From: Escherichia coli
GTDB taxonomy: Bacteria; Pseudomonadota; Gammaproteobacteria; Enterobacterales; Enterobacteriaceae
DNA: 28,028 nucleotides
Assembly (NCBI RefSeq): GCF_003334335.1
Contig: NZ_QOWQ01000050.1
Strand: one strand, 5' to 3'
Position numbers and translations under genes: made by a program. The notes beneath the pieces are model-generated. The model searched no databases and was not told where the DNA came from. It saw only the letters and a program-made list of their open reading frames with translations. Shown here one piece after another: positions 13,527-15,386 of this stretch (its first letter is position 1; the number at the start of each line of letters is the position of its first letter).

Positions 13527-13600
13527 TATAATGTTTCAACTCCATGTATTAATTGTGTTTATTTGTAAAATTAATTTATCTGACAATAACATTTATTGTT

Positions 13601-13619
13601 GATAATGAGAATCATTATT
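13601..13619 (+). promoter_or_regulatory. Fur box (iron box) of the aerobactin promoter, within the shiF-iucA divergent intergenic region
   Basis: gataatgagaatcattatt matches the 19-bp Fur consensus GATAATGATAATCATTATC at 16 of 19 positions. It overlaps candidate sigma-70 elements TTGATA (13599-13604) and CATAAT (13622-13627), 17-bp spacer. Confidence 0.85.
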
Positions 13620-13661
13620 GACATAATTGTTATTATTTTACTGTGTGGGAGCTGTTTGACT

Positions 13662-15386
13662 ATGACCCTGCCCTCTGAAAAACCAGCCACAGATGTGGCT
13701 GCGCAGTGCTTCCTGAATGCACTGATTCGTGAAACCACAGACTGGAAACTGACAGAATACCCGCCAGACGAATTGCTCATCCCGCTGGATGAGCAGAAAT
13801 CGCTCCATTTCAGAGTGGCTTATTTCTCCCCAACCCAGCATCACCGCTTTGCATTTCCTGCACGTCTGGTCACGGCATCAGGCAGTTATCCTGTCGACTT
13901 TACCACTCTCTCCCGGCTTATTATTGATAAGCTACGCCATCAACTGTTTCTGCCCGTTCCCCTCTGCGAAACTTTCCACCAGCGCGTGCTGGAAAGCCAT
14001 GTCCATACGCAACAGGCAATTGATGCCCGTCATGACTGGGCCGCTCTGCGTGAAAAAGCGTTGAATTTTGGCGAGGCTGAGCAGGCGCTGCTGACAGGAC
14101 ACGCTTTCCACCCTGCGCCTAAGTCTCATGAACCGTTTAACCGGCGGGAGGCTGAACGCTACCTGCCTGATATGGCACCCCACTTCCCACTGCGGTGGTT
14201 TTCGGTGGATAAAACGCAAATCGCCGGTGAAAGTTTGCATCTCAACCTTCAACAGCGGCTGACGCGATTTGCCGCAGAGAATGCGCCTCAGTTACTCAAC
14301 GAATTAAGTGACAACCAATGGCTGTTCCCGTTGCACCCGTGGCAGGGGGAATATCTTTTGCAGCAGGGGTGGTGCCAGGCACTTGTTGCTAAAGGGCTGA
14401 TTAAAGACTTAGGTGAGGCCGGCACGTCGTGGCTGCCGACCACCTCTTCCCGTTCCCTCTACTGTGCCACCAGCCGCGATATGATCAAGTTCTCCCTGAG
14501 CGTACGGCTGACCAACTCCATCCGTACTCTGTCCGTGAAAGAAGTGAAGCGTGGGATGCGCCTGGCACGCCTGGCTCAAACCGACGGCTGGCAGATGCTA
14601 CAGGTCCGCTTCCCGACTTTCCGGGTAATGCAGGAGGATGGCTGGGCCGGGCTGCTCGATCTTAACGGCAACATCATGCAGGAAAGTCTGTTTGCCCTGC
14701 GTGAAAATCTGCTGGTGGATCAGCCGAAAAGCCAGACTAACGTACTGGTCTCCCTGACTCAGGCCGCACCTGATGGCGGTGATTCGCTGCTGGTTTCGGC
14801 GGTAAAACGCCTGAGCGATCGCCTCGGTATCACTGTGCAACAGGCCGCCCATGCATGGGTCGATGCATACTGTCAGCAAGTGCTAAAGCCGCTGTTTACG
14901 GCTGAAGCGGATTACGGCCTGGTGCTGCTGGCGCATCAGCAAAATATTCTTGTCCAGATGCTTGGGGATCTGCCGGTCGGATTTATTTACCGTGACTGTC
15001 AGGGCAGCGCTTTTATGCCTCACGCGACAGACTGGCTCGATTCTATTGGCGAGGCGCAGGCGGAAAATATTTTCACCCATGAGCAGTTGCTGCGCTATTT
15101 CCCTTATTACCTGCTGGTTAACTCCACTTTTGCTGTGACCGCTGCGCTGGGGGCTGCCGGGCTGGACAGCGAATCGAATCTGATGGCTCGTGTACGAGCA
15201 TCGCTGGCTGAAGTGCGTGATCAGGTGACTCATAAAACCTGTCTCAACTACGTGCTGGAAAGTCCGTACTGGAACGTAAAAGGTAACTTTTTCTGTTATC
15301 TGAACGATCATAACGAGAACACCATTGTTGACCCTTCGGTGATCTATTTCGATTTCGCTAACCCGCTGCAGGCTCAGGAGGTCTGA
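13662..15386 (+). CDS. iucA: aerobactin synthetase subunit IucA
   Basis: Frame open from 13596, but MTLPSEKPATDVAAQCFLNALIRE begins at the ATG at 13662 (RBS gggag 10 nt upstream). The upstream extension would translate through the Fur box and promoter. Sequence is recognisably IucA (IucA/IucC family). Confidence 0.93.
   Translation: MTLPSEKPATDVAAQCFLNALIRETTDWKLTEYPPDELLIPLDEQKSLHFRVAYFSPTQHHRFAFPARLVTASGSYPVDFTTLSRLIIDKLRHQLFLPVPLCETFHQRVLESHVHTQQAIDARHDWAALREKALNFGEAEQALLTGHAFHPAPKSHEPFNRREAERYLPDMAPHFPLRWFSVDKTQIAGESLHLNLQQRLTRFAAENAPQLLNELSDNQWLFPLHPWQGEYLLQQGWCQALVAKGLIKDLGEAGTSWLPTTSSRSLYCATSRDMIKFSLSVRLTNSIRTLSVKEVKRGMRLARLAQTDGWQMLQVRFPTFRVMQEDGWAGLLDLNGNIMQESLFALRENLLVDQPKSQTNVLVSLTQAAPDGGDSLLVSAVKRLSDRLGITVQQAAHAWVDAYCQQVLKPLFTAEADYGLVLLAHQQNILVQMLGDLPVGFIYRDCQGSAFMPHATDWLDSIGEAQAENIFTHEQLLRYFPYYLLVNSTFAVTAALGAAGLDSESNLMARVRASLAEVRDQVTHKTCLNYVLESPYWNVKGNFFCYLNDHNENTIVDPSVIYFDFANPLQAQEV

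Follow-up and report, generated by a model that had tools for sequence, protein, structure and literature searches.

Both in E. coli and in hypervirulent Klebsiella, aerobactin is an established virulence factor. The operator at promoter P1 of its pColV-K30 operon has been footprinted and contributed to the definition of the Fur box (de Lorenzo 1987; Escolar 2000; both as cited in PMC2189734 and PMC3788343). A review takes iucA as its textbook case: P1 holds two Fur sites, which cover the -35 and the -10 respectively (PMC3788343, Fig. 1 legend). In the pColV-K30 record M10930, the primary and secondary footprints are placed at 347-370 and 365-393 (Chen et al. 2007, PMC2189734), and the same source lists for Escolar et al. 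2000 a long footprint of 103 bp, at 291-393. Here we analyse the equivalent region, positions 13594-13664, in a 28,028-nucleotide stretch of E. coli DNA (contig NZ_QOWQ01000050.1 of assembly GCF_003334335.1; the whole stretch is called the window below). In the window, iucA, the first gene of the aerobactin operon iucABCD-iutA, is transcribed away from shiF, a divergent transporter gene. We place the M10930 coordinates on the window only approximately, and in an inferred orientation.

Fur control of this region has also been followed outside pColV-K30. In E. coli CFT073, chromatin immunoprecipitation sequencing (ChIP-seq) gave Fur peaks for both c3627 (iucA) and c3628 (shiF), and GATAATGAGAATCATTATT is the motif listed for each (Banerjee et al. 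2020, PMC7157518). In a fur mutant of that strain iucA was derepressed about 119-fold and shiF 32-fold (supplements of PMC7157518), derepression extended over the whole iucABCD-iutA operon, and this operon and shiF belong to the 22 pathogenicity-island operons for which the study reports direct repression by Fur (PMC7157518). On pS88, iron-poor conditions induced shiF 7.7- to 17.7-fold and iucA 16- to 168-fold (Lemaitre et al. 2012, PMC3438092), and shiF was said to share the aerobactin Fur box (PMC3438092; Genuini et al. 2019, PMC6918656). ShiF aids aerobactin secretion and has been termed an auxiliary factor (Genuini et al. 2019, PMC6918656). Shared Fur control of iucA and shiF is therefore already in the literature, as is the observation on P1.

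The Fur operator of P1

The iron box upstream of iucA in the window is the 19-mer GATAATGAGAATCATTATT, read from the sequence and checked for position by script. It differs from the 19-bp Fur consensus GATAATGATAATCATTATC at two positions and is the sole site with three or fewer mismatches in the 28 kb, where shuffled sequences gave an expectation of 0.01; the next best Fur-like 19-mers anywhere in the window have five mismatches. A preliminary description of this DNA had placed the box 43 bp upstream of the iucA start and 75 bp from the start of shiF on the other strand. Both distances are correct, the first being counted from the last base of the box to the ATG (42 bp lie in between) and the second from its first base.

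The box lies on a strong promoter. The pair TTGATA / 17 bp / CATAAT, with a TG upstream of the second hexamer, agrees with the sigma-70 consensus at 10 of 12 hexamer positions and was the best plus-strand match in a promoter scan. With our own sigma-70 scoring matrices, which are approximate and follow textbook hexamer frequencies, it scored 13.2 bits against 10.0 for the runner-up on the plus strand between 13480 and 13720. The preliminary description has the box overlapping this pair of hexamers. This is true of the -35, which shares the first four bases of the box, and not of the -10, which begins 3 bp past the end of the box and lies instead under a second, weaker Fur-like site. That site, CATAATTGTTATTATTTTA, has six mismatches to the consensus and spans the -10 hexamer together with the transcription start, which we predict to lie near 13634. 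Operator and core promoter thus overlap at both hexamers, the box on the -35 and the secondary site on the -10.

The surrounding spacer (13527-13661, 135 bp) is 76% A+T, as compared with 43-46% in the flanking genes. GATAAT-like hexamers are dense from 13548 to 13640 and sparse beyond 13641, and within the upstream block, 13541-13598, the best Fur-like site has seven mismatches (for example 13582-13600). A search against Rfam returned no RNA family for the promoter region or its vicinity.

Taken together, these observations lead us to read 13594-13664 as the chromosomal-island form of the aerobactin P1 promoter and operator, repressed by Fur and with an operator region shared with shiF, and we give this reading a probability of roughly 0.88. 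Every feature of the aerobactin P1 Fur operator family that can be tested in sequence is present. Fur binding and the control of iucA and shiF by iron and Fur have been published for identical or near-identical sequence. The stretch 13599-13664 is identical in the window and in CFT073, where it carries the Fur ChIP-seq peak, and the label of a canonical Fur-repressed aerobactin promoter is borne out. The further proposal that one Fur-controlled region may serve both transcription units is already supported by experiment, because this identical CFT073 core has the ChIP-seq peak, with its motif assigned to iucA and shiF, and both genes are derepressed in the fur mutant. The reporter and Fur titration experiments put forward in the preliminary description have in effect been done on identical or near-identical sequence, and its author was right to regard the locus as expected biology. 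We found no evidence contradicting the P1 and Fur part of this reading.

A mechanism consistent with these features may be outlined. When iron is plentiful, Fe2+-Fur would bind 13601-13619 and cover the -35 of P1; it would then spread to the weaker site over the -10 and, at higher occupancy, to the AT-rich hexamers upstream. Bound in this way, Fur would keep RNA polymerase off P1, leaving iucABCD-iutA silent. When iron becomes scarce Fur would leave, and the strong promoter TTGATA / 17 bp / TGnCATAAT would fire. The same operator region would also repress the divergent shiF, most likely because the promoter of that gene stands back-to-back with P1.

The arrangement is conserved. When the spacers of the window and CFT073 are aligned with those of a ColV-type plasmid and two Klebsiella lineages, the Fur box proves to be conserved, as do the two P1 hexamers. 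A second conserved block lies nearer shiF, at about 13531-13577, and a variable segment separates it from the box and P1. The divergent layout of an MFS transporter gene and iucA is kept in ColV-type plasmids, Klebsiella, Cronobacter and Duffyella, across AT-rich spacers of 135-156 bp that contain a Fur box with two or three mismatches. On pCUNV1 of Cronobacter universalis, where IucA is 65% identical, the MFS gene diverges from iucA across 135 bp; on a plasmid of Duffyella gerundensis, where ShiF is 57% identical, the spacer measures 137 bp. In these two the strongest box, CATAACGATAATCATTATC, has two mismatches and lies 19-22 bp from the ATG; the iucA promoter reads TTGCCA / 16 bp / TATCAT, with CATAACGATAATCATTATC over its -10 hexamer and transcription start. 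Because CATAACGATAATCATTATC occupies the alignment position of the weaker E. coli site, the stronger site differs by lineage while the layout of tandem sites is conserved.

A scan of the GTDB species representatives for the degenerate operator TTGATAATGNGAANCNTTATNGAC returned only five hits and no new lineages. Three are contigs with an E. coli-type shiF-iucA region (ShiF 99.7-100% and IucA 99-100% identical) in bins labelled Bacillota or Collinsella, most likely the result of bin contamination. The other two are unrelated and at about chance level.

A candidate promoter for shiF and competing explanations

For each alignment position we took the minimum promoter score across five lineages (the window, ColV, Klebsiella, Cronobacter and Duffyella). 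A single minus-strand promoter-like site was conserved in position in all five; its minimum was 8.2 bits, and no other position exceeded 4.1. In the window it consists of TTCTCA and TATTGT with an extended -10 (TGnTATTGT), and the equivalent -10 hexamers occupy the same alignment columns in the other genera: TAGGAT in Klebsiella, and AATATT, again with TG, in Cronobacter and Duffyella. From this candidate, shiF transcription is predicted to start near 13576. Its -35 and that of P1 are 1 bp apart on opposite strands. The candidate -35 falls inside the iron box; therefore, one Fur-occupied site would cover both -35 elements. The 103-bp pColV-K30 footprint, if oriented as we infer, would span the whole candidate promoter, which is suggestive. 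The position of the shiF promoter and the manner of its occlusion are likewise suggestive, and the arrangement suggests back-to-back promoters that share one operator.

With this in mind, one may speculate further. The iron box could be the shared core of two back-to-back promoters, at which one Fur site shuts off both siderophore synthesis and siderophore export, the two promoters perhaps competing for RNA polymerase once derepressed. According to this speculation, the upstream half of the 'unusually long' operator described on pColV-K30 in 2000 would be the operator of a shiF promoter that was not recognised at the time. We hold this fuller proposal only tentatively, and would sooner bet against it than for it.

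Several points weigh against the reading of the region as a P1 operator shared with shiF, all of them on the shiF side. A literature search found no mapped shiF transcription start. The candidate promoter is moderate (TTCTCA, TATTGT), at 9.0 bits compared with 13.2 for P1; promoter-like matches are numerous in AT-rich DNA; and the intergenic alignment of Cronobacter and Duffyella is uncertain. ChIP-seq cannot resolve the responsible site within 135 bp. Finally, the candidate is not the top-scoring minus-strand match in E. coli, which is TTAATA / 16 bp / TATAAT at 13552-13525. We rejected this last match as the promoter of shiF: with its -10 overlapping the ATG of the gene, it would yield transcripts without a start codon. 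Klebsiella, Cronobacter and Duffyella have no such site at the same place, the -10 of the match varies within E. coli lineages (TATAAT, TAAAAT, TACAAT), and the match probably arose by chance, the DNA being AT-rich.

An alternative, which we consider unlikely, is that the 19-bp box controls iucA only and that shiF is repressed through separate, weaker Fur sites, or through spreading, along about 13541-13598. Such an arrangement would agree with the weak Fur-like 19-mers and dense GATAAT-like hexamers upstream (the seven-mismatch site at 13582-13600 among them), with the pColV-K30 footprint, listed as running about 56 bp past the primary and secondary sites (PMC2189734), and with the lower derepression of shiF than of iucA, 32-fold against 119-fold (PMC7157518). 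However, ChIP-seq yielded no motif for shiF other than the 19-mer of the box (PMC7157518), and the upstream block holds no site better than seven mismatches. In vitro, spreading begins at the primary box, which would thus remain necessary, and the conserved minus-strand candidate has its -35 inside that box.

Far less probable is a shiF promoter on the iucA side of the box, with box-bound Fur acting as a downstream roadblock, in collision with P1, instead of covering a -35 hexamer. A minus-strand match of 8.8 bits does exist there (TAGTCA, 16 bp, TAAAAT at 13662-13635, with a start near 13628), but it is not conserved in position: the lowest cross-lineage score near there is about 4 bits, the Klebsiella -10 is degraded to TATGCT or absent, and the -35 would overlap the iucA start codon. 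A box that arose by chance in AT-rich DNA, or that has decayed and plays no regulatory role in this strain, is a reading for which only the general AT-richness of the spacer (76% A+T) could speak; it is effectively refuted by the 0.01 matches expected by chance, by identity to a ChIP-validated site, by the intact operon, and by the presence of the region in 1812 complete E. coli genomes and its conservation across genera.

The locus and its surroundings

The window matches the E. coli G1/2 chromosome at 100% identity over the 801 bp from 13200 to 14000, and RefSeq annotates an 'MFS transporter' and an 'aerobactin synthase IucA' there at exactly corresponding coordinates. The two divergent units, shiF on the minus strand and iucA on the plus strand, flank the single 135-bp spacer. 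The preliminary description also took the locus to be intact; iucA, iucB, iucC, iucD and iutA are all present as intact open reading frames, with no RefSeq pseudogene flags, and the box stands directly upstream of them. In an NCBIfam search the iucA product matched families of the IucA/IucC type. ShiF matched Pfam MFS_1 (4e-18) and had no NCBIfam family at E <= 1e-5. A TTG at 13596, which opens the mechanically called reading frame, was rejected as the iucA start: it falls within the promoter, and the ATG at 13662 is the start in RefSeq and in every homologue. Coordinates are collected in the table.

Table. Position and strand of the features discussed, in window coordinates.
Feature	Position	Strand	Remarks
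AT-rich block, GATAAT-like hexamers	13541-13598	.	probable upstream part of the long Fur operator, with the shiF promoter/leader region
Candidate shiF -10, TATTGT	13583-13588	-	TG before it (TGnTATTGT); 17-bp spacer; putative
P1 -35 hexamer, TTGATA	13599-13604	+	best sigma-70 match; top in matrix scan
Primary Fur box, GATAATGAGAATCATTATT	13601-13619	.	2 mismatches; same 19-mer under the CFT073 Fur ChIP-seq peak
Candidate shiF -35, TTCTCA	13606-13611	-	inside the Fur box; putative
P1 extended -10, TGaCATAAT	13619-13627	+	TG 13619-13620; hexamer CATAAT 13622-13627; 17-bp spacer
Secondary Fur-like site, CATAATTGTTATTATTTTA	13622-13640	.	6 mismatches; over the -10 hexamer and transcription start
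Shine-Dalgarno-like GGGAG	13647-13651	+	read from sequence; ends 10 nt 5' of the iucA ATG
shiF, MFS transporter, 397 aa	12333-13526	-	divergent from iucA; ATG 13526-13524; RefSeq 'MFS transporter'; Pfam MFS_1
iucA, aerobactin synthase, 574 aa	13662-15386	+	first operon gene; ATG 13662-13664; RefSeq annotation of E. coli G1/2
iucB, iucC, iucD, iutA	15387-21611	+	rest of the operon; intact open reading frames; no pseudogene flags in RefSeq (E. coli G1/2)
iha, TonB-dependent receptor Iha, 696 aa	25074-27164	+	695/696 residues identical to CFT073 Iha

Over its first 25 kb the window has 99.9-100% identity to several E. coli chromosomes, and we therefore place it in a chromosomal island. Over the 801-bp promoter region, plasmids of the ColV type are about 93.7% identical to it and the virulence plasmids of Klebsiella about 81%. 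The 135-bp spacer is present in 1812 of 5426 complete E. coli genomes. In the annotation of E. coli G1/2 a nan-like sialic-acid cluster (window 3275-12175) adjoins shiF; it comprises a lyase, a kinase, an MFS transporter, an epimerase, esterases, a KdgM-type porin and nanR. In the same annotation, IS66-family elements fill positions 1-3000, at the left end.

The start of shiF itself differs between genera. The E. coli ATG (13526) is ACG in Klebsiella, and the Klebsiella ATG, 21 nt further in, is ACG in E. coli. On account of this difference from the two Klebsiella lineages, E. coli ShiF has seven extra N-terminal residues (window 13505-13526, minus strand). On the other side of the spacer, codons 8-14 of iucA contain a terminator-like minus-strand hairpin, CAGCCACATCTGTGGCTG, followed by GTTTTT (13684-13701), which is partly disrupted in Klebsiella. 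It could be a stop for antisense transcription toward shiF, or simply a hairpin of the iucA mRNA.

Downstream of the operon, a Fur-like box, ATAAATTATTCTCATTATT, at 25004-25022 has six mismatches and ends 52 bp before the iha ATG. The 177 bases that end at this ATG are identical to CFT073 at 175 positions. In CFT073 iha is a direct Fur target, derepressed 181-fold, and its promoter is likely a second Fur-controlled one in the window. Between iutA and iha lies the small RNA Esr41 (Rfam RF02676; 23007-23080, minus strand), full-length at 108.6 bits against a gathering score of 102; no Fur-like box with six or fewer mismatches was found just upstream of it. AT-rich Fur-like 19-mers with five mismatches, such as TGTACTGATAACCATAATC and GATAATTATTATAATAACG, follow iutA at 22708-22726 and 22851-22875, in a gene-poor stretch with no obvious downstream gene, where the nearby RefSeq annotation consists of pseudogene fragments only.

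The main value of the region is as an anchor: it shows that the aerobactin locus in the window is intact and under the usual control by iron, within a chromosomal virulence island of the type found in extraintestinal E. coli, with iha and Esr41 nearby. The sole increment over earlier work is a specific position for a candidate shiF promoter, with its -35 inside the Fur box, and this is nothing new in kind. The candidate, if true, would tidy a well-known system and leave its understanding unchanged.

Comparison with known systems

Among the closest described systems is P1 of pColV-K30, the prototype of Fur operators (de Lorenzo et al. 1987; Escolar et al. 1997, 2000), whose mechanism is the same as that proposed here, Fe-Fur occluding the -35 and the -10, as summarised in PMC3788343. 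A ColV-type plasmid and the window have in common the 19-mer iron box, TTGATA / 17 bp / CATAAT and the distance to the iucA ATG. They differ by a few substitutions immediately before the -35 (13595-13598) and by two between the -10 and the ATG, which leave the box and the hexamers unaffected. The iucA-shiF region of CFT073 differs by three substitutions in the spacer (13528, 13595, 13598) and belongs to a different strain background; the nan-like cluster beside shiF is a further difference between the island in the window and CFT073.

The enterobactin regions fepA-fes, fepB-entC and fepD-entS resemble the locus in plan, each being a pair of divergent iron-uptake units around a short AT-rich spacer with Fur sites, and for fepA-fes coordinated repression in the two directions was shown in vitro (Escolar 1998, as cited in PMC2189734). 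In the enterobactin regions both starts and the footprints have been mapped, whereas in the window the shiF promoter is a prediction only, and the sequences are unrelated beyond the Fur-box consensus.

The aerobactin-like loci, of cronobactin type, of Cronobacter pCUNV1 and the Duffyella gerundensis plasmid have, like the window, a divergent layout, a spacer of 135-137 bp, a two-mismatch box and an aligned minus-strand promoter-like site. Their strongest box lies over the -10 and the start, whereas that of the window lies over the -35, and Cronobacter, unlike the window, has an additional gene for a siderophore-interacting protein after the MFS gene.

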